The notes under the pieces: generated by a model | Databases searched by the model: none | What the model saw: only the letters and a program-made list of their open reading frames with translations | Told to the model about the DNA's origin: nothing | Source of the DNA: a virus | Reading direction: 5' to 3' (one strand) | Virus record (IMG/VR): IMGVR_UViG_3300023082_000002 | Span: 1-64,000 of that record | DNA length: 64,000 nucleotides | Shown here: one piece after another, positions 4,578-47,473 of the stretch | Layout of the letters: the number at the start of each line of letters is the position of its first letter | Position numbering within the stretch: position 1 is the first letter of the stretch | Program-made: the position numbers and the translations under genes

Positions 4578-5588
4578 ATGGGTTACAGTTCTCAGGCAGG
4601 CGCAGTCCTGTTCGCATCGCAGCCCACCGCCGACACGTTCCCGGCAGGCTTCGGTACGGCCCACACGGCAATGAAGATGCGTTCGGGCAATCTCAGTCCG
4701 AACCGTGATCTTCTCGTCACCGATCCCGAGATCGGAGGCTCGCGTGACACGGCCGACGCGTACCTTGGTGGCGTCTCCTGGTCGGGTGACTACGAGTTCT
4801 ACGTTCGTCTCGAGTCTGTCACTTCGCTTCTGCGAGCTGTCCTTGGTTCGGCGGCATCGGTCACGACAACTGGTGTCACCACCCACACGATCACGCCTTC
4901 GGATTCTTCGACGCTGCCTTTCCTGGCGGTCGAGGAGAAGATCGGTTCTGGCTTGGAGGTGTATCGCTACACCGACGTCGTGGCGAACACCTTCCACCTG
5001 GAGTCCGATGCCAACGGCTACCTCATGGGCAGCTCGGGACTCATCGCCCGCAAGCAGACCGCAGGTATCACGCCGACCGCCTCGCCGATGTGGGACAACT
5101 CGCCCCTCATCGTCGGTACGAACGTCGCGATCACCTACAACTCGGTCAGTCTGCCGGCGAAGTCGTTCAGCCTCGACATCAACAACAACTTCGAGGATGA
5201 CGACTTCCGACTCGGCTCGTTCTACATCGGAGACCTGACGGCCAAGAGTCGCGAGGTCAACGGGTCGTTCTCGATCCGTCCCAACGATTCGCTCCTGTGG
5301 CGCCAGGCTGTCTATGGCGGCTCGGCCCTCACGGCTCCCGGTGGCGTCACCGTCAAGTCCCCGCTGGTCATCACTTGCCAGACGTACGAGGACATCATCG
5401 CTGGCACCCCGGCGACCAAGGGCTCGATCGTCATCACGATCCCGAACGTCGCACTCGAGCCCTACGGACTCGAGCCGAGTGGTGATGACATCATCGAGAA
5501 CGACGTCAGCTTCCGTGCCCTGCGTCCTGCAGTCGGTACGGCAATTGCCTCTGTGGTCGTCAAGTCCGCGCAGGCAACCATCCGCTAA
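4578..5588 (+). CDS. major tail tube protein
   Basis: 336 aa beta-rich, highly biased codons, SFSLDINNN motif, followed by chaperone and tape measure genes. Confidence 0.85.
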   Translation: MGYSSQAGAVLFASQPTADTFPAGFGTAHTAMKMRSGNLSPNRDLLVTDPEIGGSRDTADAYLGGVSWSGDYEFYVRLESVTSLLRAVLGSAASVTTTGVTTHTITPSDSSTLPFLAVEEKIGSGLEVYRYTDVVANTFHLESDANGYLMGSSGLIARKQTAGITPTASPMWDNSPLIVGTNVAITYNSVSLPAKSFSLDINNNFEDDDFRLGSFYIGDLTAKSREVNGSFSIRPNDSLLWRQAVYGGSALTAPGGVTVKSPLVITCQTYEDIIAGTPATKGSIVITIPNVALEPYGLEPSGDDIIENDVSFRALRPAVGTAIASVVVKSAQATIR

Positions 5589-6638: not shown

Positions 6639-9600
6639 GTGGACATGGGTCCAGGCATCATGAACATTCAGGTGAGAGTCCTCGCCGCGAATGCTCGTCG
6701 CACCCTTCGTAGTGTCCGAGCGGAAATGGCTGCTGTGCAAGCGCAGTCGCAAGCTACTTCGGCTGTTTCCCCGGTAGGTAAGCGGTCCTTCGCTGACATG
6801 ACGAAGGCCGGAAACCAGATGCAGTGGGTTGGTCGTCAGCTTCAGTACAACTTTACGTTGCCACTTGTTCTAGCAGGTGCCGCTGCGACAAAGTTCGCGC
6901 TAGACCAGCAAGCCGCGATGGTGCACGTCGCCAAGGTCTATGGTGACAGCGATGCCGCTGTCAAGTCTTTTCAGGCAACCCTAGACGCCGGTGGCGAGCA
7001 GGCTAAGAACCTCCGCTCTGAGTATTCTCAGGTCATGGGTAAGGACCTCACTGGTAACATCGAGGCTGCCAAGAAGGAAATGGCGGCTTACAACCAGGAG
7101 ATTGAGAAGCAGGAGCTCGCAGCACTGGAGCGCAACTTCGACGCACTGTCGGTGAAGTTTGCAATTCAGAAGAAGGAGGTCATGGAGGTTGCGGGCGCTT
7201 GGGCCGCAGCTGGAGTCTCGGGCAAGGAGCTTGCCAAGTCAGTCGAGAACACTCTGATCGCCACGAACATCGGTGACATGCCTGCTGCTAAGGCGACCGA
7301 AGCACTCATCTCGATTCAGGCTCAGTACAACATGAGCGCCAGCAAGCTGAAGCGTACGCTTGCTGACTTGAACGCAATTGAAAACGCCACCGCCGTTGAC
7401 ATGGGTGGACTTATTCAGTCCATGGCAAAGTCCGGTTCGGCGGCTGCAGCATCAGGCACTTCGGCTAAGTACTTGGCTGCAATGACAGCTTCGATTACTC
7501 CTGCGGCTGGTTCGGCCTCGCAGGCCGGTAACGCACTTAAGACCATTCTTTCTCGCATCAGCAAGCCCACCGAAGAGGGCGCGGCTGCGATGGAGCGGCT
7601 CGGAGTCAATGTCGACTCTGTGGCATGGAAGTCCCTGGGTGGAGCCGAGAAGCTTGAGGTTCTTCAGAAGGGCTTCAACAACCTGAGCGAGAGCGAGCAG
7701 CTGGCAAACGCATCTGCCACTGTCGGTATCTACCAGTACAACCGCTACATCCAGCTTCTCAAGGACATGGGTCGCGAGCACGGCAACTACAACAAGTCGC
7801 TCGACGCGACGATCAGCCGTGACAAGGTCTTCAATACCATGAACAAGGAGCTCGGCACCATCCTGGAGTCGAACCCCAAGCGACTCCAGCGAATGGGCAT
7901 CGCGCTCCAGAACAGCCTCGCTGACATCATTACCCCGCTGATCCCGCAGTTGATCTACCTTGCGGGCGAGGTTGCGAATCTCGCTAAGGCGTTCAACAAC
8001 CTGCCTGCTGGCGTCCAGAAGGTTGCGCTCGGGATCGCGGTTCTCCTGGTCGTCATGCCGCTTCTGCTTCGGTACCTCGGCTCGCTGAAGACTCTGTTTG
8101 TCGTCACTAAGATCGGTGTCGGTGGACTCGCTCGCGCTATCGGCATCCTGTCCACTGCCACTGCAGTCAACACGGTCATAGACGGCGAGTCGGTAGTCGT
8201 CACCGAGATGAAGCGCAAGGGCCTTATTGGTCTGTTCTTGACGATGCTGCGAGCTCCGTTTAAGTGGTTCGCCGCCGCAGCCTGGGCATCGGCAACGCTT
8301 ACCTCGAAGGCATTTACGTTCATCGCGTGGTCTGGTGTAACTAGCATCCGAATGCTGATTGCTAGGACTGCCGCACCGTTCGCTGCATGGGTCGCATTCC
8401 TCACCCAAACTGTCTTGATGGGCGGTTTCGCCGCCGCCTTTAAGTGGGTGTGGGCATCTATCGTCGGATTGTTCGCTCGGGGAAGCGCGACCACCCTGGC
8501 GATCACACGAGGCACGAACGCCGCCCTCGTCGCGGGCAATGTGACCACCCAGCGCGCCCTTGCAGCGGGGACCGCCACAGGCGCCGCTGCTCAGATAAGT
8601 ATCTGGAGTAGGTTCGGCGGAATCATTAGCGGAATCATGGCCGCGACGCGACTTCGCCTAGCAGCTATCTGGCTTTCGTTCATCGGCTTCCTCGCTAATC
8701 CGGCTGCGATCATGGCTGCACTCAAGGCAGTGTCTTTGGTGATCGGTCAGTTTGCCGTGCGGCTTATTCCGATCTTGTTTGGGCCTTGGGGTATCGCTAT
8801 CGGTGCGATCATTGGCCTCTTGTATATTTTCCGCAGTCAGATCGCGCAGGTCTGGAATAACATTGTCAGCTACTTCCAGAGTAGTGGTGATCTCGGACGC
8901 GTCTTCAACTGGATGGTTGGCGGAGCACTGAGCGCGTTCAACGCACTTCCGCAGGGCGTTCAGAATGCGATGCTCGCTGTGGTCAAGGTTGTTCGTGACG
9001 CGGCCCTTGCGGTTTACGAGTGGTTCAGCTACATCAATCCTTTTGCCCACCACTCGCCGTCACTGGTGGAGAACGTCACCGCTGGTATGGGGGAGGTTGT
9101 CAAGCAGTTCAGTACACTTGGTCAGATCAAGCAGTACACCGATGCGGCATACAAGGAACTGAATCGCTTCGGCAAGGCAACTTCAAACATTACCGGCAAG
9201 TCTGCACGCATGGACGTTGCCGACGATCGTAAGACTTTGCAGAAGGGTGGAGCAAGTAAGGCTGCCCTTAAGTCTTATGATGATCTTCAGGGCAAGCTGC
9301 GATCCATGCGTTCCGAGTACGCGGGCCTAGGCGCCGAGATTGATCGCTTGAAGAATAAGGACATCGAGGCCCGTCGAGAGATGGACCACGCCATTTTCGA
9401 GAATGAGTTTGCTCAGAAGAAGCTCCGTCTCGAAATGCTTCGCATGGAGCAGGGCGGAATCTCTATCGACAAGGTGAAGGATCAGCTGTCTGGTCTTGAC
9501 GATGAGATTAAGAAGGTCGATGATCGTTTTGGTCAGTTGACTGAAGCGATTGACGGAATGAAGGAGATTACGACCGGACTTCGTGCTGCTGGAGCCGGTT

Positions 9601-12600
9601 CTGATATCACCGGATTTTATGACGAGCAGCTTAAAGCACTAGAGGGTCAGCGTGCTGGTCTTGATCAGCAGAAGGCTGGCCTCGAAGCACAGAAGAAGCC
9701 ACTCGAAGATTCACTCGCCGTTCTCGATAAGATGAGTGCGCAGATGGAGAACCTTCAGCGCCAGGGTGAGATTCTTGATCTCGAGAAGGCGATGAAGTTC
9801 GACGAGGTCGATCATCAGATTGATCGTATGCAGCAGAAGTACGATCTCATTGGCGAGACCATTTCCGACATTGAGGCTGGAATTAGCGCGGCTGTTACTG
9901 CTCAGGAGAACCTTAATCGGGCAGCCGAGGAGCGCAAGCAGGCCAAGGAGGCCGCGAAGAATCTTGCGAAGGAAAAGGGCAAGGGCGCGACTACACCCGA
10001 GACGGCGGGTGCCAACTTCCCCGACGTCACTGGCAAGGGCTTGAAGGGGCGCACGGACTTCTCTTCTGAGGTTGATGCGATTAACGCGCTTACTGACGAG
10101 ACGCTTGCATCCACGTCAGACTTGTTCGCACAGGTCAACCCATTTAAGTCGATGGGCAAGTGGTTTAAGAAGACTTGGGACAATGACGTACTTCCCACTC
10201 TTTCAGGTGCTGGTGACTGGGTTGGTAACTTCTTCAGCACAATCTTTGATGGGGTTAAGCTCCCTGATAGTGTCACCAATACTGGCAACTTTCTCGGGAA
10301 TGCTTTTGACCCCAAGGAGATCAAGGCTAAGGTGGATGCTGTTGTTGCAATTGTCACCGGCATCTTCGACTTGTTCTGGCCTGACCTGAAGCGAATCTTT
10401 ACAGCAGGCTGGAATGGCCTCGTTTCCATTTGGGATCAGATCGGTCCCGAGCTTGTAGAGTTCGCGACACTACTGGCACCCCTTAAGGATGCACTGATTG
10501 GGACGGCCAAGGTCGTCGGTGGGGTTCTCGTCATCGCGTTTGGCATCCTCCTGGCTGCCCTCAAGGTTGTCGGTAGCGTTATCGGTCACACGATCGGGCC
10601 AGTCTTTGAAGCCATGGGAGGAGTTATTGCCGGCTTCCTGAAGATTCTTCGTGGTGCTATTCGGATTGTTGCTGGCGCAGTAAAGGTTATCATGGGTTTA
10701 TTGACCCTTGATCCGAAGATGGTTCTTACCGGACTCGGTGACATCGGCAAGGGTATTTGGGAAGTATTTTCGGGGCTTCTCAACACCCTTGGCGCTGTCT
10801 TCAAGGGTGCCTGGCAGATTCTTGTCGGGATTGCACAGGGTATCGTCGGCGGCATCTTCGGATTCTTTAAGTGGCTTTACGATCTATTGCCGACACAGGT
10901 TCACGACACTGTCAATGCGGTTATCGGTGCGTTCCAGTTCCTTGCAGGGGTTCCGCAATGGATTTGGGAGAACGTACTCGATCCTGTGTTTAAATTCTTT
11001 GCAAACTTCTTCAAGGATTACATTCTTCCGGTTGTTGATGTTTGGTGGAATCTTCTTCTGGTGCCGTTCGCGGTTATCGCTCAGATGGGTATCTGGTTCT
11101 GGGACCACGTTCTCAAGCCTGTCATCGGTCGATTCAAGGACGCTTGGGACTGGGTTGTTGGACACCTCAAGGGCTGGTGGGGTGGCATCCAGAATGCGCT
11201 CTCCGCAGTCAAGGGAGCTGGCCAATGGTTCTGGAACAATGTTTTGTCACCGATCGTCTCCTGGGTTGGGCGCACATGGAGCGAGCACATCCAGCCAAAG
11301 CTTGCGAGCTGGTGGGGTGGAATCACTGGAGCGTTTGACAGCCTCAAGGGACTTGGTCAGTGGGTTTGGAACAACGTCCTCAAGCCGATCAAGGACAAGT
11401 TCGAGCAGCTGTTTAACGACATTAAGACTTGGATCGGCAATAACACGAGTAAGATCGTTAACCCGATGATCGGTATGGTTAACGGGATCATCGGCGCAAT
11501 TAACAAGATGATCGACGGCCTTATGATGCTGAACAAGCTGCCTGGTATCAACTTTAAGGTCGACCACATTCCGCCGATTAAGGCACTCGAAGAGGGTGGT
11601 GCGATCCCGAACCGTCGCGTAGGTAATGGCTGGGTGACGAACGGAGCTCGTGCAATCGTTGGCGAGGGTAAGCCGAATCACCCCGAGTTTGTCATTCCGA
11701 CCGATCCGACTTATCGTAACCGGGCAACCATGCTGTTCAACACCCTCGGCCAGAAGCTCGGACTTCTTGAGGGCAAGAAGCAGACCCCGCTCGATAACGT
11801 GCATGGCGCGATGAACGACAAGGGTGTCCCGATGTTCTTCGGAGGCGGCATTCTTGACGGAATCAAAAAGACTGCTGGTGGAATTAAGAACGTCGCAAAG
11901 GGTGTGACTGGCACAGTCATTAATGTTGGTGGGGAAGCGTTTGACTGGGCTAAGGGTGCGGCTGGAAATGTTGCATCGCGCATTTACACGCCTGTTGGAA
12001 AGATTGTTGATCGAATCATCGGCAAGCTGTGGAACGAGATTCAGCCTGGCGCTCGCACTGCCCACACACAGGTCAAGGACGTAGTCTTTGGCACTGACGA
12101 GTACATGGAGCAGCTTCGAAAGGAAATTGCCGATAAGTGGGTCAAGCCACTTATGAGTGGATACTCGATCGGCGGCGGCATCGGATCGTATGCTGGTCAC
12201 AACGGCAGAGACTTCCCTGTAGCGAAGGGTACGTCTGTTCACGCAATCAGTGGTGGTACTGTTACAGCGTCACGAGACATTGCAGCAAATGGTGGAAAGT
12301 ATAACGGCGGCGGCTATGGCTCGTACGGTCGTATGATCGAGATTGCCCACAAGAACGGCATCAAGTCGCTGTACGCACACAACAGTCAGCGTCTGGTTAG
12401 TGCTGGCGATACCGTTATGCCGAATGATGTCATTGCGAAGTCTGGCTCGACTGGTAACTCGTCTGGTCCTCACCTTCACCTGTCGATGTGGCAGAATGGC
12501 TCACTCACAGAGCCGCTGGACTTCCTGCGAACACATGGAGTTAAGCTGGCGAAGGGTGCGATAGTTCGGTCGCGTAGCGGCGGAGTGGATGCTACAATCG

Positions 12601-12779
12601 GCGAAGGCAATCGTGACGAGGCAGTCTTGCCTCTCCCGAGGGGCTGGCGTGGAGATGATCCGTTCAGGGGTGGAGACACTAACATTACGGTGACAGGTGA
12701 TCTCGTCTTCCCGAACGTCGAGAATGGCGATGACGCAGAAGACTTCATTAACAACCTCGTTTCAGTAGTGAAGGAATAA
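6639..12779 (+). CDS. tape measure protein with C-terminal M23 peptidase
   Basis: 2046 aa, TP901-type N-terminal region, Trp-periodic repeats, HNGRD...YAH...GNSSGPHLH M23 motifs; start may be ATG 6660. Confidence 0.95.
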   Translation: MDMGPGIMNIQVRVLAANARRTLRSVRAEMAAVQAQSQATSAVSPVGKRSFADMTKAGNQMQWVGRQLQYNFTLPLVLAGAAATKFALDQQAAMVHVAKVYGDSDAAVKSFQATLDAGGEQAKNLRSEYSQVMGKDLTGNIEAAKKEMAAYNQEIEKQELAALERNFDALSVKFAIQKKEVMEVAGAWAAAGVSGKELAKSVENTLIATNIGDMPAAKATEALISIQAQYNMSASKLKRTLADLNAIENATAVDMGGLIQSMAKSGSAAAASGTSAKYLAAMTASITPAAGSASQAGNALKTILSRISKPTEEGAAAMERLGVNVDSVAWKSLGGAEKLEVLQKGFNNLSESEQLANASATVGIYQYNRYIQLLKDMGREHGNYNKSLDATISRDKVFNTMNKELGTILESNPKRLQRMGIALQNSLADIITPLIPQLIYLAGEVANLAKAFNNLPAGVQKVALGIAVLLVVMPLLLRYLGSLKTLFVVTKIGVGGLARAIGILSTATAVNTVIDGESVVVTEMKRKGLIGLFLTMLRAPFKWFAAAAWASATLTSKAFTFIAWSGVTSIRMLIARTAAPFAAWVAFLTQTVLMGGFAAAFKWVWASIVGLFARGSATTLAITRGTNAALVAGNVTTQRALAAGTATGAAAQISIWSRFGGIISGIMAATRLRLAAIWLSFIGFLANPAAIMAALKAVSLVIGQFAVRLIPILFGPWGIAIGAIIGLLYIFRSQIAQVWNNIVSYFQSSGDLGRVFNWMVGGALSAFNALPQGVQNAMLAVVKVVRDAALAVYEWFSYINPFAHHSPSLVENVTAGMGEVVKQFSTLGQIKQYTDAAYKELNRFGKATSNITGKSARMDVADDRKTLQKGGASKAALKSYDDLQGKLRSMRSEYAGLGAEIDRLKNKDIEARREMDHAIFENEFAQKKLRLEMLRMEQGGISIDKVKDQLSGLDDEIKKVDDRFGQLTEAIDGMKEITTGLRAAGAGSDITGFYDEQLKALEGQRAGLDQQKAGLEAQKKPLEDSLAVLDKMSAQMENLQRQGEILDLEKAMKFDEVDHQIDRMQQKYDLIGETISDIEAGISAAVTAQENLNRAAEERKQAKEAAKNLAKEKGKGATTPETAGANFPDVTGKGLKGRTDFSSEVDAINALTDETLASTSDLFAQVNPFKSMGKWFKKTWDNDVLPTLSGAGDWVGNFFSTIFDGVKLPDSVTNTGNFLGNAFDPKEIKAKVDAVVAIVTGIFDLFWPDLKRIFTAGWNGLVSIWDQIGPELVEFATLLAPLKDALIGTAKVVGGVLVIAFGILLAALKVVGSVIGHTIGPVFEAMGGVIAGFLKILRGAIRIVAGAVKVIMGLLTLDPKMVLTGLGDIGKGIWEVFSGLLNTLGAVFKGAWQILVGIAQGIVGGIFGFFKWLYDLLPTQVHDTVNAVIGAFQFLAGVPQWIWENVLDPVFKFFANFFKDYILPVVDVWWNLLLVPFAVIAQMGIWFWDHVLKPVIGRFKDAWDWVVGHLKGWWGGIQNALSAVKGAGQWFWNNVLSPIVSWVGRTWSEHIQPKLASWWGGITGAFDSLKGLGQWVWNNVLKPIKDKFEQLFNDIKTWIGNNTSKIVNPMIGMVNGIIGAINKMIDGLMMLNKLPGINFKVDHIPPIKALEEGGAIPNRRVGNGWVTNGARAIVGEGKPNHPEFVIPTDPTYRNRATMLFNTLGQKLGLLEGKKQTPLDNVHGAMNDKGVPMFFGGGILDGIKKTAGGIKNVAKGVTGTVINVGGEAFDWAKGAAGNVASRIYTPVGKIVDRIIGKLWNEIQPGARTAHTQVKDVVFGTDEYMEQLRKEIADKWVKPLMSGYSIGGGIGSYAGHNGRDFPVAKGTSVHAISGGTVTASRDIAANGGKYNGGGYGSYGRMIEIAHKNGIKSLYAHNSQRLVSAGDTVMPNDVIAKSGSTGNSSGPHLHLSMWQNGSLTEPLDFLRTHGVKLAKGAIVRSRSGGVDATIGEGNRDEAVLPLPRGWRGDDPFRGGDTNITVTGDLVFPNVENGDDAEDFINNLVSVVKE

Positions 12780-19035: not shown

Positions 19036-19245
19036 GTGCCTAGCAGCCAGAAGTTTTGGGAGAGGCTGGCCGTAGGCATTCTGGTTATCATTCTTATTGC
19101 CCTTGCGGTTGGTGTGTATCGAGACAAAGTCGATTACACACAGGTTATCGTTGCGGCAATTGGACTTATTGGTTTGCTTAGGGGAGCAGACTCTTTTAAG
19201 AAGATGACCGATAAGGATGACGACAGCGACAAGAGCTCGACATGA
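19036..19245 (+). CDS. small 2-TM membrane protein (lysis cassette)
   Basis: AGGAG RBS; two hydrophobic helices and a charged tail. Confidence 0.7.
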   Translation: MPSSQKFWERLAVGILVIILIALAVGVYRDKVDYTQVIVAAIGLIGLLRGADSFKKMTDKDDDSDKSST

Positions 19246-19370
19246 GTATGAGCACAGAAACCTTGGGTCTTGTGAGCAGCGTTGTTTACGCCGTTGGCAT
19301 GTTCTCGGGAGCTGCGCTCGAGCGATTCATTCTTGCACCACGCCGTAAACGACTCGATAAGGAATCCTGA
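19242..19370 (+). CDS. 42-aa single-TM protein (not in ORF track)
   Basis: MSMSTETLGLVSSVVYAVGMFSGAALERFILAPRRKRLDKES; ATGA and TGATG coupling on both sides. Confidence 0.65.
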   Translation: MSMSTETLGLVSSVVYAVGMFSGAALERFILAPRRKRLDKES

Positions 19371-19816
19371 TGGTCGTACAGTTTCTGCACAACCGCCTCC
19401 CTGAAAAGGTTAGGCAGAAGTGGCCGATCAATCGACTGATCAACGATGTCCTCATTCTCCTGATCGTTCTTCTCGGGTGGCTCGTTGTTGATCAGCGGAA
19501 GAACCTTGGCGATACTCAGGATTGCATTCGCGAGTATCTCGTTAGCCAGTCAGCAGCGCAGCAGCCGCGCAACCAGGCGAACATCGAGACCGATAATGCC
19601 TTAGCCGCGGCTATCAGTACCATCCCCCCACTCCTTCAAACGATCCTCTCAGCTGCCGCTGACTCGAACAACCTCCAGCTTCAGCAGCAGTCCCTGGACG
19701 CCGTTCGTAACACCAACAGAGCTTTCAGTGACTTCAATGTGAACTTTGCCGAGCTCAAAAAGGCTCGCGCAAACTTCCCCATCCCTCCGGCCCCTGAGAA
19801 CCTTTGCAAGGACTGA
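19370..19816 (+). CDS. membrane-anchored helical protein (lysis cassette)
   Basis: One N-terminal TM, then a helical ectodomain with 2 Cys. Confidence 0.7.
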   Translation: MVVQFLHNRLPEKVRQKWPINRLINDVLILLIVLLGWLVVDQRKNLGDTQDCIREYLVSQSAAQQPRNQANIETDNALAAAISTIPPLLQTILSAAADSNNLQLQQQSLDAVRNTNRAFSDFNVNFAELKKARANFPIPPAPENLCKD

Positions 19817-19817
19817 T

Positions 19818-20168
19818 ATGGAATTGGATTACGCGGAGTTCTTCCGCACGCTCGTTGGCACTGTGTTACTAGTAGCATGGTACGTCATTAGCCGACGCAC
19901 GCGAGGACGATGGGCACACATGACCCGAGTCGGAAAGCGTCTATGGATCGGCTACTACATTCTTTTGTTCGCCGTCATATGGGCGACAATTGATTCTCTC
20001 AACGCTGATTCACCAATCACCAGCAAGAATTACGTCCTCGCTTTTGCGGCGGCGTTCCTGGCGATTGGTGGGCTGTTGAGGCTAGAGGGTGACGAGAGCA
20101 CCGAACCCGTTTACTGGGTAAACCTGAAAGGAAGGCCGAGCACATGGCGAATTATCAAGCTGAGGTAG
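19818..20168 (+). CDS. 3-TM membrane protein (lysis cassette)
   Basis: ATG 19818 after AAGGA; three hydrophobic segments. Confidence 0.7.
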   Translation: MELDYAEFFRTLVGTVLLVAWYVISRRTRGRWAHMTRVGKRLWIGYYILLFAVIWATIDSLNADSPITSKNYVLAFAAAFLAIGGLLRLEGDESTEPVYWVNLKGRPSTWRIIKLR

Positions 20169-20171
20169 GGG

Positions 20172-21743
20172 GTGGCACCCATGGGAGCTAACACGCTGAT
20201 TCGTACCAGTAGCGGAGCTCGCATCCCCGACGAGTTGCTCGAGATGAATCGAGCAGTCGAGAAGATCATGAAGTGGGGCAAGGACTCCATGACAGTCACA
20301 CAGGGCTCACGCTCTGTGGCTGTTGGTGCTTCCGGGAACACACACGGAGGCGACGATGCGGAAGACCTCACTGCCAATGAGGCTGCTGCGAAGGAGAAGT
20401 ACTTTCGCCTCCAAGGTGGCATGTTCTACGAGCGTGCACCGATCAAGGGTGTCTGGTCTCGCCATGTTCACGGCGGGCGTGACTACTCGACTGTCGGCTC
20501 GAAGGCGTACGCGCAGCAGCTTGTGCAGTACCACAAGCGCAACAACGCGCTTGCGAACTTCGGCCCTGACACTGGCTACCGGATGCTTGTCTTCCCCAAG
20601 CACGTCTACAAGGGATACATCGGGTATGTGCAGGCACGAGGCGCCACGAACGCTTACGAGCAGCCGACCGGCAAGTCCAAGAAGATCACGCCGATCAAGC
20701 GCAAGCAGGTTACGTACGTCGTAGCCGAGATGGAAGTTGCCGGCTCGCGCTGGTATCTCACGCTGACCGGCAAGTGCATCAAGGCTTCTCGATTCAACAA
20801 GATCGCCAAGCCGAAGACTGTCGCTTCGACTCGTCCCGCTCCTGTGGTTGCCACACCTGCTCCGACTCCGAGTGCACCCGCATCGAAGCCGACGTCGACG
20901 ATTCTGAACATTGGTACTCGAAACGTCATCGTCAATCGTCTGACATCGTCGGGCAAGAACGGACGCTTTACCAATGTGAAGAAGGGTCTGTCGTGGCACG
21001 AGCGCAAGCCGCTTCTTGCCAAGGATGCGGCCCAGGCAAACCTGGACCTTCTCGGCACCCAAGAGGCTGGAGAGCGGTCAGACATGGCAGAGTTCGCGAC
21101 CAACCTTGAGCTCGCCACGAAGCACGACTGGGACTTTGTCTACGGTGGTGACAACTTCGACATCAGCCAAGCGAACCTGTGGGATCGTTCGACGCTCGGA
21201 GAGCTGGAGTCTGGTGTTGTTGATCTTGAAGGCAGCGATCACGACAAGCTCGTGTGGTCCCGTCACCGAGTGAAGGCTACTGGCGGTTCGCTGTTGATTG
21301 GCAACCTGCACTCCGAATGGCGCGAGGGAGGCAAGTCGGCGAAGGGCAACCAGTACGACAGGCTTCGCGAGCGTCAGTCCAAGAAGGCCATGGCATGGCT
21401 GATCGCAAAGGCCGAAGGTACTGACGACGTTGTCGTTCTTCTTGGCGATTTCAACTCCACCGCACAGAATCCGTACGATGGTCCCGGCAAGGCTGCCGCC
21501 GCTACAGGATTCCGTGACTGCGAGTCGGCAGCGAAGTCACAGGTTCGCACCGAGTGGAACAGTTACCACGGCTTTGAAAGCCCGAAGGCTGATAAGCAGT
21601 TTGATCGGTTCTTCGTTCTGCAGTCGCAGATCGACTCCGGTCAGCTGGAGGTCACGCACTTCGCGGTCGATCCGAACGCCGCAACCAAGGCTGGCAGTGA
21701 CCACTACCAGACCCGCATCCGTATCATCGTCCGAGTCAAGTAA
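20172..21743 (+). CDS. endolysin: M15-like Zn peptidase + SH3-like domain + EEP (endo/exonuclease/phosphatase) domain
   Basis: TQGS..SGNTHGGDDAED and RHVH motifs; P/T/S linker; GTRNV, GTQE, NLH, GDFN, FDRFFV, GSDH EEP motifs; flanked by membrane genes. Confidence 0.8.
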   Translation: MAPMGANTLIRTSSGARIPDELLEMNRAVEKIMKWGKDSMTVTQGSRSVAVGASGNTHGGDDAEDLTANEAAAKEKYFRLQGGMFYERAPIKGVWSRHVHGGRDYSTVGSKAYAQQLVQYHKRNNALANFGPDTGYRMLVFPKHVYKGYIGYVQARGATNAYEQPTGKSKKITPIKRKQVTYVVAEMEVAGSRWYLTLTGKCIKASRFNKIAKPKTVASTRPAPVVATPAPTPSAPASKPTSTILNIGTRNVIVNRLTSSGKNGRFTNVKKGLSWHERKPLLAKDAAQANLDLLGTQEAGERSDMAEFATNLELATKHDWDFVYGGDNFDISQANLWDRSTLGELESGVVDLEGSDHDKLVWSRHRVKATGGSLLIGNLHSEWREGGKSAKGNQYDRLRERQSKKAMAWLIAKAEGTDDVVVLLGDFNSTAQNPYDGPGKAAAATGFRDCESAAKSQVRTEWNSYHGFESPKADKQFDRFFVLQSQIDSGQLEVTHFAVDPNAATKAGSDHYQTRIRIIVRVK

Positions 21744-21751
21744 GGAAGACC

Positions 21752-22216
21752 ATGTTTATCATTGAACAGCTGGCGCTCGCCGAGCCCGGCGCACTCGACA
21801 CCAAGGGGATCGAGGTGTCGATCAGCACTGTCTGGTACACCTTCATCCTCGCCACTCTCGCCCCGCTCATCGTGGGTCTCATCACGAAGCGGTTCGTTGA
21901 GTCACGAACCAAGACACTCCTCCTGGTTGCCGTCACGGTGCTCATTCAGGTACTCACCGAGCTTGGCTCGACGTTCAATCTGTGGGAGTTTCTCACGAAG
22001 GCGTTCATGGCTTTTGTCCTCGCGGTCGGCATCCACTACCAGTTCCTGAAGAAGGCCGGCATCACTTCCCAGGATGGAGCTGTCAATAAGTTCTTGCCCG
22101 ACATCGGCATCGGCCACGACTACGGCGGCGATGACCTGCTGCCCGACCCGGAGCTGATTCGCAAGACCAACGAGGCGAACGGCATCACGGCGGAAGACTA
22201 CCCAAGCGAAAAGTAG
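21752..22216 (+). CDS. holin
   Basis: 3 TM, PLIVGLITK...TK.LLL pattern of actinophage holins; follows the endolysin. Confidence 0.75.
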   Translation: MFIIEQLALAEPGALDTKGIEVSISTVWYTFILATLAPLIVGLITKRFVESRTKTLLLVAVTVLIQVLTELGSTFNLWEFLTKAFMAFVLAVGIHYQFLKKAGITSQDGAVNKFLPDIGIGHDYGGDDLLPDPELIRKTNEANGITAEDYPSEK

Positions 22217-44554: not shown

Positions 44555-47473
44555 TTATCGGTCCGTCAATTTTTTCTCAAGGTGATGAATGACCTTGACC
44601 AGGTCTTCGTCTCCGTCGACTCGAACGGTATCCATCCCGAACTCTTCAGGCGAACTGGTTCGGATACCGACGCCCATGAGGGTGATGTTCTGCTGCCTAC
44701 ACTTGGCGATCTGAGTCTGAAGAACTTCGAGCTCCTCGTCATAGTTTGCCGCAGGCATTGCGCCGTCAGTGTAGTACAGAATGATCTTGTCGGTTGCCGG
44801 AGTCCGCTCAACAGCCTTGCGATAGTACTCTAGCGTATGACCGTCGACGTTCGCCTGAAGTGGTCCAATGTTCTTCAGAGATTCGCGAGCACGGTCATCC
44901 CATTGATCCTGAAATGACTTGATCTCATATATTTCCATGCTGAGATTCTCGTACGTACCATCTCCACTGTCGAGTGCACTATGTGCATACACAGCGAAGT
45001 CAATACCAACTCGTGAACACAGTTCGGCCTGAGCCGTGACCGCCCGTTTCGCGAGCTTCATATTGCGAGCACCAGTGAATGACATGCTGGCCGAGATATC
45101 AACCCCGATGACGACGGCGTACGACTTCTTGCCGGGCAAGATAGTCTTCTTGAACATGCGTGGATCGTTGAATGGAGCGCGCTTGGCGAGCGACCCACCC
45201 CGAATCTTTCCCGACTTCAAGTTCTTCTGATGACGAGCACGCTTGTTATCATCGAAGACACGACGCGTAACCTGCAATGCTTCACCTAGCAAAGACTCAT
45301 CAGGCTCAAAGTCACCACGCAAGCCGATGTTGCGAAGGGACTTTTCGCTGTAAAGAACCTTGTCCCCATTAGTGCCACGCCATGCGTTGTCAGAGTCAGG
45401 GACATCGGTGTATCGGTGAACATTGACACCGACAATGTTCACAGGAGCTGTATCAAAGTACAGGCCTTGCTCGATCGCAACTTCCATTGCGGCCTCTGCG
45501 GTACCATCGTCCACTGATTCGCCAAGCGAATACTCCGCAGACTCCTCGGCGTGATGGTCGCCGTGATGACCAGTCACTGCCTCCACGTACTGCGGAACAG
45601 AATCAGCGGAGCCATAATCTATTTCCGCTTCCAATTCCTGGCCCCAAGGATCGCTGCCTGTGTCGGATGAGCTATCCTCCATGTCATTCGGCTTGTCGGT
45701 GCCGAGCTCATTACTTCGTGTCTCAGATGCTGGGTCAGCATCGTCAGACCGATCCGCCTCCAGGGAATCCTCGCCGCCGACTGCTCCCTGATCTTCGGGC
45801 GCCTCGTCAGTGGCGAGTCCACTATCTGTGTCAGTGTCACCCCCAGACCCGTCGGGCTCTCGTGGATCACCGTAACCACTTTCAGTCTGGAACTCTTGTG
45901 AATCATCCCCACTGCTACGACTGTCTTCGTCATCTAGTCCTCCTTCTTCCTCCGAGCTGTCTGTCTCGCCAGTTCCTGATCCGCCGGACTCATCTTCGAT
46001 ACCTTCTGGATCGACCTCCGCTGCTGACTCTTCGGTCGACGAATCTTCCTCAGTCGCGTCACTGGTTACTCCCCTGTTAGCTTCCGCTGTGTCTCCAGGT
46101 ACGCTCTCGCCTGCTCCCTCTGGATTCGGTGACGATCCTCCGTTGTCAGGTTGATCGTCACCGGACTCGCTGTCGTCTTCGGGTACTCCTGTGCTGTCGC
46201 CGGAGCCAGAGGGAGAACCGTCATCATCTGTGTCAGGCTGTTCGTCCGTCTCGCCTGCGCCGCTGTCAACATTCGACGCATCGCTCGGAGTGTCGTTCTC
46301 TGGAAAGGCCTCCTCAGTCTCAGGGGAATCCTCGGCATCATCAGACTGAGCATCCGATAAATCTGAATGGTCAGACGATCCAGAATCGCCTGCCACCTCC
46401 CCTGTATCCTCGCCCTTGCCAGCGCCTTGGTCATCGTCAGCTTCATCCTCGGTATCTCCTTGTTCTTGGTCGGAAGATTCTTCCGATGATTCGTCATTGT
46501 CCTGACTATCGGACTCTTTGTCCGGTTCAGTTCTATCCTGCTTATCTTCGGACTCCTGGTCCTGCGGCTCAGGCTGCGGCTCGTCATCCTCTGTAATGTC
46601 GTCGGCCTCAGCAAAGAAGCCGAGCTCTTTGCCGCGCATCAAGGCATCGAAGGACAGGTTGAACACGTCACTCACCGAGCGTGCAGTCTTGGCACCTTCG
46701 GCAGTAGCAGTAAGCTCCGAGTCATAGCATGCCGCGACCACCTCGGGTGCAAAGAAGTCGTTGACCTCCCAGCGGGACGCTACTGCATACAGAGCAACAA
46801 TCAGTTGAGCATTGAGGGGCGCGTCGATCCATCGCGCAACCGAGCCGTCTGCCTGCTCGACACCCTCGGTAAAAGCTCGGCGTGCTCTGACCTCTCGCAT
46901 CTTGCGTGTACCCTTGCGAGCCAAGAACATGCGCTCGTCGATGCGAACGTCCTCAAGAATGTTCATGATCTGACCCAGGTACTCTGAAATAGAGTTAGCC
47001 AGTAGTATGAACGAATCGCCACCCTGCTTCCCCTGGTACTTCTCCATGCGCCTGTTCATCTTAGCAACAAAGTCGTCACCCTTGAATGCGACAGCAGCGG
47101 AGAGGGCCTTTGCTCGATCCTTGTCTGTGAAGGGAGCGAACGAGTGGTAAGCAATGTGTGCGATCTCGTGATAGATGCCAGAGAGAATATCTTCACGCAC
47201 TCTACACGCAGGGCATAGCTGCTGAAGGGTGACGTCATCTCTCTTGTCACACACGCTGCGGTCATGCTTTGTGTCGTCGGCTAGTGACAACGGGGGACGG
47301 TAGAAGATCGTCGTGCCGTCCGTGTGGGGAAACCCTGCGGTCACCTGGATGCGGACGGCGGGCTCCCCCGTAACGGCGCGAGCGTAGGAGGTGAGGCCGG
47401 GCTGCATCGTGCGAAAAGCTGCCAGAGCTTTTTGGGCTCTAGCAACATGGTCGCGGTCAACTGTCTGACTCAT
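44555..47473 (-). CDS. CobT-like vWA protein (HExxH N domain, long acidic linker, C-terminal vWA)
   Basis: HEIAH; NILEDVRID; several hundred D/E/S/G-rich residues; MIDAS DISAS and YTDG.P. Confidence 0.88.
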   Translation of the reverse strand: MSQTVDRDHVARAQKALAAFRTMQPGLTSYARAVTGEPAVRIQVTAGFPHTDGTTIFYRPPLSLADDTKHDRSVCDKRDDVTLQQLCPACRVREDILSGIYHEIAHIAYHSFAPFTDKDRAKALSAAVAFKGDDFVAKMNRRMEKYQGKQGGDSFILLANSISEYLGQIMNILEDVRIDERMFLARKGTRKMREVRARRAFTEGVEQADGSVARWIDAPLNAQLIVALYAVASRWEVNDFFAPEVVAACYDSELTATAEGAKTARSVSDVFNLSFDALMRGKELGFFAEADDITEDDEPQPEPQDQESEDKQDRTEPDKESDSQDNDESSEESSDQEQGDTEDEADDDQGAGKGEDTGEVAGDSGSSDHSDLSDAQSDDAEDSPETEEAFPENDTPSDASNVDSGAGETDEQPDTDDDGSPSGSGDSTGVPEDDSESGDDQPDNGGSSPNPEGAGESVPGDTAEANRGVTSDATEEDSSTEESAAEVDPEGIEDESGGSGTGETDSSEEEGGLDDEDSRSSGDDSQEFQTESGYGDPREPDGSGGDTDTDSGLATDEAPEDQGAVGGEDSLEADRSDDADPASETRSNELGTDKPNDMEDSSSDTGSDPWGQELEAEIDYGSADSVPQYVEAVTGHHGDHHAEESAEYSLGESVDDGTAEAAMEVAIEQGLYFDTAPVNIVGVNVHRYTDVPDSDNAWRGTNGDKVLYSEKSLRNIGLRGDFEPDESLLGEALQVTRRVFDDNKRARHQKNLKSGKIRGGSLAKRAPFNDPRMFKKTILPGKKSYAVVIGVDISASMSFTGARNMKLAKRAVTAQAELCSRVGIDFAVYAHSALDSGDGTYENLSMEIYEIKSFQDQWDDRARESLKNIGPLQANVDGHTLEYYRKAVERTPATDKIILYYTDGAMPAANYDEELEVLQTQIAKCRQQNITLMGVGIRTSSPEEFGMDTVRVDGDEDLVKVIHHLEKKLTDR

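Follow-up and report, generated by a model that had tools for sequence, protein, structure and literature searches.

The gene considered here occupies positions 20172..21743 (forward strand) of the first 64,000 nucleotides of IMG/VR virus record IMGVR_UViG_3300023082_000002. This stretch (the "window") is part of a complete record of 76,093 bp with direct terminal repeats. The virus is an uncultured soil phage; the one public sequencing run in which its DNA occurs, a leaf-litter metagenome, is probably the source. We read the gene product as a modular endolysin that features a new class of catalytic domain; as far as the open-access literature shows, the design is recurring but undescribed. 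The bounds of the open reading frame (ORF) match exactly, and 523 amino acids are encoded from a GTG start codon that is immediately preceded by the Shine-Dalgarno-like sequence GAGGTAGGGGG. An in-frame ATG at codon 4 (20181) gives an alternative 520-residue form, which is the version present in the protein collection. Neither a signal peptide nor a transmembrane segment was found in the product using a hydropathy scan. A preliminary description, made from the DNA alone, had proposed an endolysin fused to an endonuclease/exonuclease/phosphatase (EEP) domain; the ORF, all of the motifs that it listed, and the Pro/Thr/Ser linker were located on the sequence as described.

The domain layout was established as follows, with all features on the forward strand. 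Residues 1–140 (20172..20591) form a predicted LAS/M15-like zinc-peptidase core, which was assigned from invariant residues and a fold match. The putative zinc ligands are H58 (20343-20345), D65 (20364-20366), and H100 (20469-20471), and the putative catalytic residue is H98 (20463-20465). The motif SGNTHGGDDAED (residues 54–65) contains H58-x6-D65, and RHVH (residues 97–100) contains H98-x-H100. An SH3b-type cell-wall-binding domain follows at residues 141–213 (20592..20810). Direct reading of the sequence revealed a linker rich in Pro, Thr, Ala, and Ser at residues 214–243 (20811..20900); its length varies across relatives, some of which have an extra insert of ca. 80 residues. The EEP phosphoesterase-fold domain occupies residues 244–523 (20901..21740) and was identified from Foldseek, structural Z scores, a family profile, and residue conservation. 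Its catalytic set comprises N251, E298, H380, D426, N428, D478, D510, and H511, which occur in the contexts TRNV (N251), TQE (E298), NLHS (H380), G425-D426-F427-N428, FDR (D478), and S509-D510-H511.

Routine annotation recovers little of this. PHROGs holds no family for the protein, and the models of Pfam, PHROG, and NCBIfam are all blind to its N-terminal half. The sole NCBIfam match was to an ExeM/NucH extracellular endonuclease at the level of chance (E 0.061). When the whole protein was compared with 50,697 annotated phage records using tblastn, there were zero matches; a single-protein pattern scan of viral contigs also yielded zero, and a single-sequence phmmer search of the PDB returned chance-level matches only.

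The peptidase and SH3b domains

The N-terminal domain was aligned with 62 relatives that are 21–38% identical. Across all 62, residues Q44, G45, S54, H58, D65, R88, H98, H100, and Q116 were invariant. The N-terminal half was modeled in AlphaFold2 with this alignment, resulting in a predicted local distance difference test score (pLDDT) of 94.7 and a predicted template-modeling score (pTM) of 0.90. Residues 10–137 superposed on the zinc DD-peptidase of Streptomyces albus G (1lbu) with a Z score of 6.3 and a root-mean-square deviation (rmsd) of 3.5 over 102 residues (21% identity). The core matched VanXYg equally well (Z 6.3) and the hedgehog N-domains (ShhN/Hh) at Z 5.4–5.6. All of the top-50 structural matches confined to the core alone were LAS proteins. 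Inclusion of SH3b in the model dilutes the scores and keeps them at a middling level; support for the modeled fold is therefore graded as moderate. The LAS zinc-ligand signature is defined as H-x(3-6)-D ... H-x-H, and it is satisfied by H58-x6-D65 and H98-x-H100 in 62 of the 62 relatives. Because this signature independently backs the fold match, an LAS-type zinc peptidase is the clear reading of the modeled N terminus.

No curated family accounts for it. The N-domain profile matched nothing among PDB sequences at E 10 or better, and a lenient Pfam scan (E 5 or better) of the 62 members returned no M15 model (VanY, Peptidase_M15_2/3/4). Since the curated M15 models fail to match even weakly, the domain is judged from its sequence to be an uncurated LAS-like family outside the existing M15 Pfam families.

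For the SH3b domain, Z scores of 9.5–8.5 were obtained against the corresponding domains of PlySb, lysostaphin, Ly7917, PlyGRCS, and the phiSM101 endolysin; the best superposition was on 9kz1 (Z 9.5, rmsd 1.8 over 68 residues). Pfam SH3_3 was weakly detected in two of the 62 relatives. The structure predictions bear out all three folds that had been proposed, i.e. the M15-like peptidase, the SH3-like segment, and, beyond the linker, a complete EEP domain. With its LAS core and SH3b domain, the N-terminal half looks like a peptidoglycan hydrolase, and the contrary possibility raised in the preliminary description fails.

The EEP domain and its substrate class

The C-terminal domain was aligned with 38 relatives (mean column identity, 22%). 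Residues H380, D426, N428, D436, D478, D510, and H511 were invariant in this set, and N251 and E298 were at least 90% conserved; D436 is family-specific and resides in a YDGPGKA motif. The peptidase and EEP motifs listed at the outset are far beyond chance, because they are invariant or nearly so in 62 N-domain and 38 C-domain relatives at low identity. The catalytic residues align to the corresponding motifs of BT3783, a sugar phosphatase, and correspond to catalytic positions of DNase I and APE1. Inactivity of the domain had been named as an objection to the original proposal. Each canonical residue is either invariant or conserved in 90% or more of the relatives, although mean column identity is 22%; the EEP domain is therefore probably an active enzyme as opposed to a degenerate binding domain.

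The model of this domain (pLDDT 94.9, pTM 0.93) gave E 2.8e-19, a probability of 1.00, and a template-modeling score of 0.72 in Foldseek. It superposed on 3mpr with a Z of 30.0 (VIA) and an rmsd of 2.1 over 248 residues, and 289 chains were matched at Z ≥8. Other Z scores were 29.2 (4c1r), 28.9 (3g6s), 27.5 (TDP2), 27.0 (3l1w), 25.2 (human neutral sphingomyelinase), and 22–23 (bacterial sphingomyelinases); one TDP2 chain outranks 3l1w. The match to Pfam PF03372 (Exo_endo_phos) covered residues 280–433 at 19.3 bits (20.5 in the six-frame search), compared to a gathering threshold of 24.5. However, that cut-off is passed by three relatives (P0027, P0062, and P0021) and by proteins that combine fn3 and EEP domains, and the family profile matches EEP entries of the PDB at E 1e-27. 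For these reasons, the phage domain is a divergent member of the superfamily, not a non-member.

Fold scores separate the substrates of EEP enzymes poorly; the family profile, searched against PDB sequences, separates them better. The best match was BT3783 (3mpr/4c1r; E 1.4e-27), followed by 3g6s (1.8e-24), 3l1w (1.2e-15), Nocturnin (9e-14), CCR4 (1.7e-8), PDE12 (3e-7), TDP2 (4.5e-7), Exonuclease III (about 6e-3), and human neutral sphingomyelinase (0.17). Among the PDB sequences, DNase I and the bacterial sphingomyelinases (Bacillus, Staphylococcus, Streptomyces) were unmatched. By sequence and structural kinship, the domain falls in a BT3783-like sugar-phosphate subgroup composed of BT3783, 3g6s, and 3l1w. 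BT3783 was shown experimentally to be a Mg-dependent phosphatase that acts on the phosphorylated glycans of yeast-wall mannan (PMC4978465). The preliminary description had offered wall polymers, membrane lipids, or DNA as substrates. Among these three, the profile clearly favors sugar-phosphate chemistry.

The location of an endolysin before lysis has a bearing on the same question. It is stored in the cytoplasm until the holin is triggered, and its substrate should therefore lie only outside the membrane. A wall-polymer esterase would be harmless in the cytoplasm; a DNase or a phospholipase would not be.

A nuclease was considered in this light. Such an enzyme would degrade released host or extracellular DNA at lysis, thereby making the lysate less viscous and releasing virions from it or from a biofilm or soil matrix, with the wall-directed half of the protein serving for delivery. 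DNase I, ExoIII/APE1, and secreted bacterial nucleases all belong to the EEP superfamily, the model superposes well on TDP2 and on CCR4-type nucleases (Z 24–27.5), and the weak NCBIfam match noted above is to a nuclease. However, the profile E-values for this class are 1e-8 or worse (20 or more orders of magnitude behind BT3783), and DNase I is not matched. Within the lysin-associated set, a peptidoglycan hydrolase or a binding module is always attached to the EEP domain (two of 33 tree rows being stand-alone or fragmentary), and the isoelectric point of the phage domain is near neutral (6.8; family range, 4.6–10.2). Further, a non-specific DNase in the cytoplasm would be self-destructive alongside replicating phage DNA. 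We regard a nuclease as unlikely.

An activity like that of phospholipase C or sphingomyelinase would be directed at membrane phospholipids, the anchors of lipoteichoic acid or of lipoglycans (phosphatidylinositol anchors of lipoarabinomannan/lipomannan), or an outer lipid layer, and it would make the domain a functional analogue of LysB or of spanins. In its favor, the bacterial and human sphingomyelinases are EEP enzymes (Z 22–25 to the model). Also, the closest cultured relatives of the phage infect mycolata, and one of them, Mbo2, carries LysB, yet the phage itself has none. The profile results run counter to it: human neutral sphingomyelinase is reached only at E 0.17, and the bacterial enzymes are not reached at all. 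Cytoplasmic activity of this kind before holin triggering would also lead to premature lysis. This alternative, too, appears improbable, and a sugar-phosphate substrate in the wall is preferred.

Recurrence of the fusion, genomic context, and host

When 1.84 billion representative proteins were searched exhaustively with phmmer, 230 matches were obtained at E 1e-3 or better. The 150 best matches, along with two relatives found earlier, were classed by architecture using residues 1–215 (N) and 241–523 (C) of the query. Both halves occurred in the same order in at least 22 other clusters (50% identity); the N half alone was present in 108 clusters, and the C half alone in 21. Close relatives of the fusion come from metagenome assemblies only, with several on contigs as long as a phage genome (72 and 55 kb), and on one contig (L064) a 537-residue fusion adjoins Collar-type tail fibers, an independent context. 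In light of the cluster count, the phage-sized contigs, and L064, the LAS+EEP fusion is a recurrent natural architecture. An assembly chimera, which had been raised as an objection, is ruled out by these many independent fusions. The LAS-like family itself accounts for 131 representative clusters among the 150 best matches and is overlooked by current annotation pipelines.

Neither module is bound to the other. The EEP domain also occurs behind Amidase_2 (P0032), behind Peptidase_M23 with or without PG_binding_1 (P0050, P0121), and behind PG_binding_1 alone (P0053). The N module is also found solo (about 220 residues) or with PG_binding_1 or PG_binding_3. In two proteins of ca. 700 residues (P0031, P0042), an N-terminal GH25 muramidase precedes the LAS module, as in classical multi-catalytic lysins; they confirm the peptidoglycan context of the LAS-like family. 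In four others (P0005, P0006, P0015, P0022), LAS+SH3b is followed by a C-terminal Alginate_lyase2 domain (PF08787, a polysaccharide-lyase fold) in place of EEP. This is a further unusual lysin architecture, whose target could be wall polymers that contain uronic acids (teichuronic acids); alternatively, the domain could act as a lectin-like binder. Because Alginate_lyase2 alternatively occupies the same position, the C-terminal slot behind LAS+SH3b fits enzymes for secondary wall polymers.

A maximum-likelihood tree was calculated for 38 EEP domains, with other clusters of fn3-linked or signal-peptide-bearing EEP proteins left out. All 33 lysin-associated rows (two of which are stand-alone or fragments) split from five cellular EEPs with support of 98/93; the five comprise four fn3-EEP proteins and one with a signal-peptide-like leader alone. 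The EEP domains linked to Amidase_2, M23, and PG_binding_1 branched from within the LAS-linked ones at three different points. On this basis, the phylogeny identifies the EEP domain as a mobile module dedicated to lysins, one that has changed partners among peptidoglycan hydrolases. The clusters left out of the tree are actinobacterial soil-metagenome proteins, and the named members of the fn3/signal-peptide clusters are from Aeromicrobium, Cellulomonas, and an Actinomycetales metagenome-assembled genome. The N-termini of the fn3-EEP proteins look like signal peptides by eye, so these nearest cellular relatives probably act outside the cell. Both lysin domains are rare in Actinomycetota as sampled: in 400 evenly sampled genomes, the EEP single-protein query found zero matches and the N-domain profile matched the Kribbella control only.

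On a related IMG/VR contig of 72,317 bp (L057, 7941-8609), LAS+SH3b occurs as a stand-alone 222-residue protein after large tail-like genes. This arrangement suggests that the two-domain part is sufficient as an endolysin and that EEP is an add-on. Such a lysin would also be compatible with an EEP domain that has no lytic role, i.e. a module that targets the wall but is catalytically silent or only binds its substrate, or an accessory that scavenges phosphate and that lysis can do without; that the phage domain falls below the Pfam threshold on its own sequence points the same way. But every catalytic residue is strictly conserved at ca. 22% column identity, and a binding domain (SH3b) is already there. 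In addition, repeated shuffling onto different lysin catalytic domains speaks for a lysis activity under selection. A domain without lytic function is accordingly rated as quite unlikely.

The surroundings of the gene are those of a lysis cassette. Upstream, a holin-like membrane protein of about 116 residues is encoded from an ATG at 19818 (19818..20168, forward strand; start codon uncertain). The hydropathy scan found one transmembrane segment in it, and two further hydrophobic stretches were seen by eye, making three likely. Downstream, a second holin-like protein of 154 residues (21752..22216, forward strand) has three to four transmembrane segments according to the same scan and an acidic C-terminal tail; its position equals that of annotated holin/membrane proteins in Rhodococcus phage Mbo2 and Gordonia phage BigShaq. 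Thereafter the strand switches to a reverse-strand PD-(D/E)XK nuclease. In both of those phages, the order is tail genes, membrane protein, lysin A, holin/membrane proteins, and reverse-strand nuclease, and this match places the endolysin gene in the lysin A slot.

Elsewhere in the genome, no competing lysin was detected. A six-frame search of the whole genome found Amidase_2, NlpC/P60, SLT, Cutinase, and GDSL_2 (PF01510, PF00877, PF01464, PF01083, and PF13472, respectively) to be absent, and PF01551 in the tape measure only. Because these searches found nothing elsewhere, the product of 20172-21743 is the sole endolysin candidate of the complete genome outside the tape measure, and the statement in the preliminary description that the window has no lysin B can be extended to any LysB-type esterase in the 76-kb genome. 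Mbo2 carries an SGNH LysB; for BigShaq, none is annotated in the 26-kb stretch inspected. Judging from the lysin A slot, the flanking holin-like ORFs, the lack of a signal peptide, and its status as sole candidate, the gene is the holin-dependent endolysin of the phage, as had been proposed; its muralytic activity is predicted.

Further upstream are the major tail protein (4578-5588) and the tape measure of 2046 residues (6639-12779), which has a C-terminal Peptidase_M23 domain at 12195-12512 (86.8 bits) that presumably provides the entry (ectolysin) activity. With M23 in the tape measure and an M15-like core in the endolysin, the phage presumably relies on one LAS-type peptidase to enter the cell and on a different one to leave it. 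A role for the 20172-21743 product as a tail-associated entry lysin was rejected because of the lysin A synteny, the holin neighbors, and the M23 domain already in the tape measure. After the tape measure come three minor tail or fiber genes, the last with a Collar domain. Between the tail fiber and the lysis genes, the hydropathy scan indicated three small membrane-protein ORFs on the forward strand (19036-19245, 19242-19370, and 19370-19816). The last of these (148 residues) has an N-terminal transmembrane anchor and a Gln/Ala-rich extracytoplasmic part without a family match. Its role may be to regulate lysis or to act like a spanin on a Gram-positive envelope.

The major tail protein is 48–51% identical to those of Gordonia, Rhodococcus, Tsukamurella, and Nocardia phages with genomes of 72–83 kb. 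A 972-residue protein (44555-47473, reverse strand) is about 35% identical to proteins of the same phage set, annotated as "CobT-like cobalamin biosynthesis / von Willebrand factor" (Gordonia phages Woes, GMA3, and others), and serves as a conserved marker for these phages.

The domains themselves point to other hosts. Relatives of the LAS core were found at 55 reference-genome loci, all in Actinomycetota and mostly in Kribbella; the others include loci in Nocardioides, Micromonospora, Phycicoccus, and Pseudonocardiaceae (Saccharomonospora, Actinophytocola, Prauserella, Actinokineospora, and Thermocrispum). Among the 55 loci, there was no mycolate genus and no EEP fusion. One Kribbella locus (L002, 5941-6702) and about 25 more from that genus (L004-L049) encode a homologue of ca. 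253 residues with ca. 33% identity and no signal peptide. Most Kribbella species with sequenced genomes have this homologue in their chromosomes, where it may be either a prophage lysin or a conserved autolysin of the host. A host within Actinomycetota is well supported by these sequence relationships, and a non-mycolate host is plausible. The preliminary description had invoked a "non-mycolate actinobacterial envelope", a claim that is unsupported as it was put: all of the closest cultured phages have hosts among the mycolate-containing Mycobacteriales. Given these relatives, and given that no LysB is annotated in the inspected 26 kb of BigShaq, the host cannot be deduced from a lack of LysB. 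The claim may still be right, because relatives of both lysin domains sit in non-mycolate Actinomycetota. The walls of Pseudonocardiaceae have arabinogalactan without mycolates. For that reason, a host from this family would reconcile a backbone like that of mycolata phages with lysin relatives from non-mycolate bacteria, but this assignment is speculation.

A narrower form of the sugar-phosphate reading was also considered. The EEP domain would cut the single phosphodiester that joins arabinogalactan (or another LCP-attached polymer) to the 6 position of N-acetylmuramic acid (MurNAc-6), detaching the whole outer wall layer at a stroke and replacing LysB in a host from Mycobacteriales sensu lato. 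Synteny of the backbone with phages of Gordonia, Rhodococcus, Tsukamurella, and Nocardia is consistent with such a role, as are the lack of LysB, the LAS-core relatives in Pseudonocardiaceae genera, and the closeness of the domain to a sugar-phosphate enzyme. On the other hand, Kribbella, Nocardioides, and Micromonospora account for most LAS-core relatives, and Aeromicrobium and Cellulomonas for the EEP relatives; none of these five genera is known to have arabinogalactan. The identity to proteins of mycolata phages is just 35–51%, and the syntenic BigShaq, with no LysB annotated in the inspected stretch, implies that no replacement is required. We assign this special case a low probability.

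Proposed function and comparison with known systems

We propose a bifunctional endolysin whose EEP domain hydrolyzes sugar-phosphate bonds in wall glycopolymers or in their linkage unit, and we give this reading an even chance of being correct. It is the best available reading because of the kinship with BT3783, the pairing with wall modules, the presence of Alginate_lyase2 in the same slot, and the probably extracellular cellular relatives. In the proposed sequence of events, the flanking holin-like proteins would open the membrane, and the SH3b domain would dock the enzyme on peptidoglycan. The LAS-type zinc peptidase would then cleave peptide stems or cross-links. The EEP domain, as a divalent-metal-dependent phosphoesterase, would hydrolyze the sugar-phosphate esters of phosphate-containing wall glycopolymers; candidate substrates are teichoic-acid-like or sugar-1-phosphate polymers, or the MurNAc-6-phosphate unit that links them to peptidoglycan. 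In this way, the wall would be stripped of the layer of anionic polymers that protects its peptidoglycan and keeps the structure in one piece. We infer the enzymatic activity of the EEP domain, its substrate, and its mode (diesterase versus monoesterase).

Several considerations weigh against this proposal. The LAS assignment consists of a Z score of 6.3 plus motifs, without a match to a curated peptidase model, and the transmembrane counts of the holin-like proteins come from a simple hydropathy scan and from reading by eye. TDP2, at Z 27.5, is just ca. 2.5 below BT3783 at Z 30. Because BT3783 is a monoesterase, a polymer-cleaving diesterase activity would be an extrapolation. The slot argument is soft, since domains of the Alginate_lyase2 fold can also be lectin-like binders.

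In existing catalogues, endolysins are built from a small set of domains that cleave peptidoglycan, with LysB esterases added in mycolata phages. A conserved, shuffled, and apparently catalytically intact phosphoesterase module would add phosphate-ester cleavage to this catalogue, and it would mark phosphate-linked wall glycopolymers as an exit barrier for phages of some soil Actinomycetota. No description of EEP or PF03372 in endolysins was found in open-access papers and preprints. In BFVD, EEP folds are found in giant viruses and in a small number of phage proteins, among them a "tail fibre" of a Citrobacter phage and a Streptomyces phage Yosif protein; none of them is annotated as a lysin. 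A census of lysin A domains in Gordonia phages lists only Ami-2A, M15, M23, GH43, and GH25, with no EEP (PMC9671378); the lysin A domains catalogued for actinobacteriophages comprise Ami-2, M15, M23, GH19/25/43, and transglycosylase, again without EEP. The assertion that EEP is not a standard lysin module is thus in keeping with the literature, in which no paper matched, and with the 50,697 phage records. If the activity is confirmed, a polymer-stripping or linkage-cutting enzyme would be a reagent for cell-wall analysis, and the EEP domain would be a possible component of engineered lysins.

Parts of the protein have clear counterparts. The lysin A proteins of actinobacteriophages share its genomic slot, its holin neighbors, and its combination of an N-terminal peptidase with a wall-binding domain. 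The carboxypeptidase of Streptomyces albus G (MEROPS M15A, 1lbu) and the VanXY M15 dipeptidases have the same H-x6-D/H-x-H signature as the phage core, and 1lbu and VanXYg are the best non-SH3 structural matches of the N half; 1lbu is actinobacterial, as the host of the phage appears to be. However, the phage core has no detectable sequence-model similarity to these M15 enzymes. Lysostaphin, an M23 LAS peptidase joined to SH3b, has the same two-domain layout and is the top whole-model Foldseek match of the N half; the SH3b domains superpose at Z 9.3–9.4. Its catalytic domain is of the M23 type (H-x3-D), whereas the phage core is M15-like (H-x6-D), and it is a two-domain secreted bacteriocin, whereas the phage protein is an endolysin with an extra third domain.

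For that third domain, the nearest characterized protein is BT3783, the mannosyl-6-phosphatase of the yeast-mannan utilization locus of Bacteroides thetaiotaomicron. It is both the best structural and the best sequence-profile match, with the same EEP fold, the same catalytic residues, and a YD motif after GDFN that is common to it and the phage family. Its substrate is a phosphorylated cell-wall glycan, which it attacks in a Mg2+-dependent manner. The two are only about 18% identical, and BT3783 is a single-domain, Gram-negative glycan-foraging enzyme that acts as a monoesterase on mannose-6-phosphate, whereas the phage EEP is fused to a peptidoglycan hydrolase.

Some virion-associated phage phosphodiesterases have been proposed or shown to attack teichoic acids, and so are likewise directed at anionic wall polymers of Gram-positive hosts. 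They are the GDPD-type enzymes in the tails or baseplates of staphylococcal and enterococcal phages and, in Thermobifida phage P1312, a metallophosphatase tail protein whose role is a speculation of its authors (PMC4569894). Those proteins have GDPD or metallophosphatase folds and serve entry, whereas the phage EEP is an endolysin domain and would serve exit.

LysB offers a functional parallel. Like the phage EEP, it is a second enzyme aimed at a non-peptidoglycan layer of the wall; it differs in being a separate serine esterase (cutinase or SGNH) that attacks a carboxyl ester in mycolyl-arabinogalactan, whereas the EEP domain is fused and would attack a phosphate ester. In the most far-reaching version of the proposal, which we consider doubtful, the lysin-linked EEP domains would constitute a new endolysin catalytic class, a "glycopolymer-linkage phosphodiesterase" that cuts the MurNAc-6-phosphate linkage unit and so undoes the work of the LCP ligases. 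If that were true, one reaction would free the whole of the wall teichoic acid, or of arabinogalactan where present, from peptidoglycan; the domain would be the first dedicated enzyme known for the MurNAc-6-phosphate linkage bond and the phosphate-ester counterpart of LysB.

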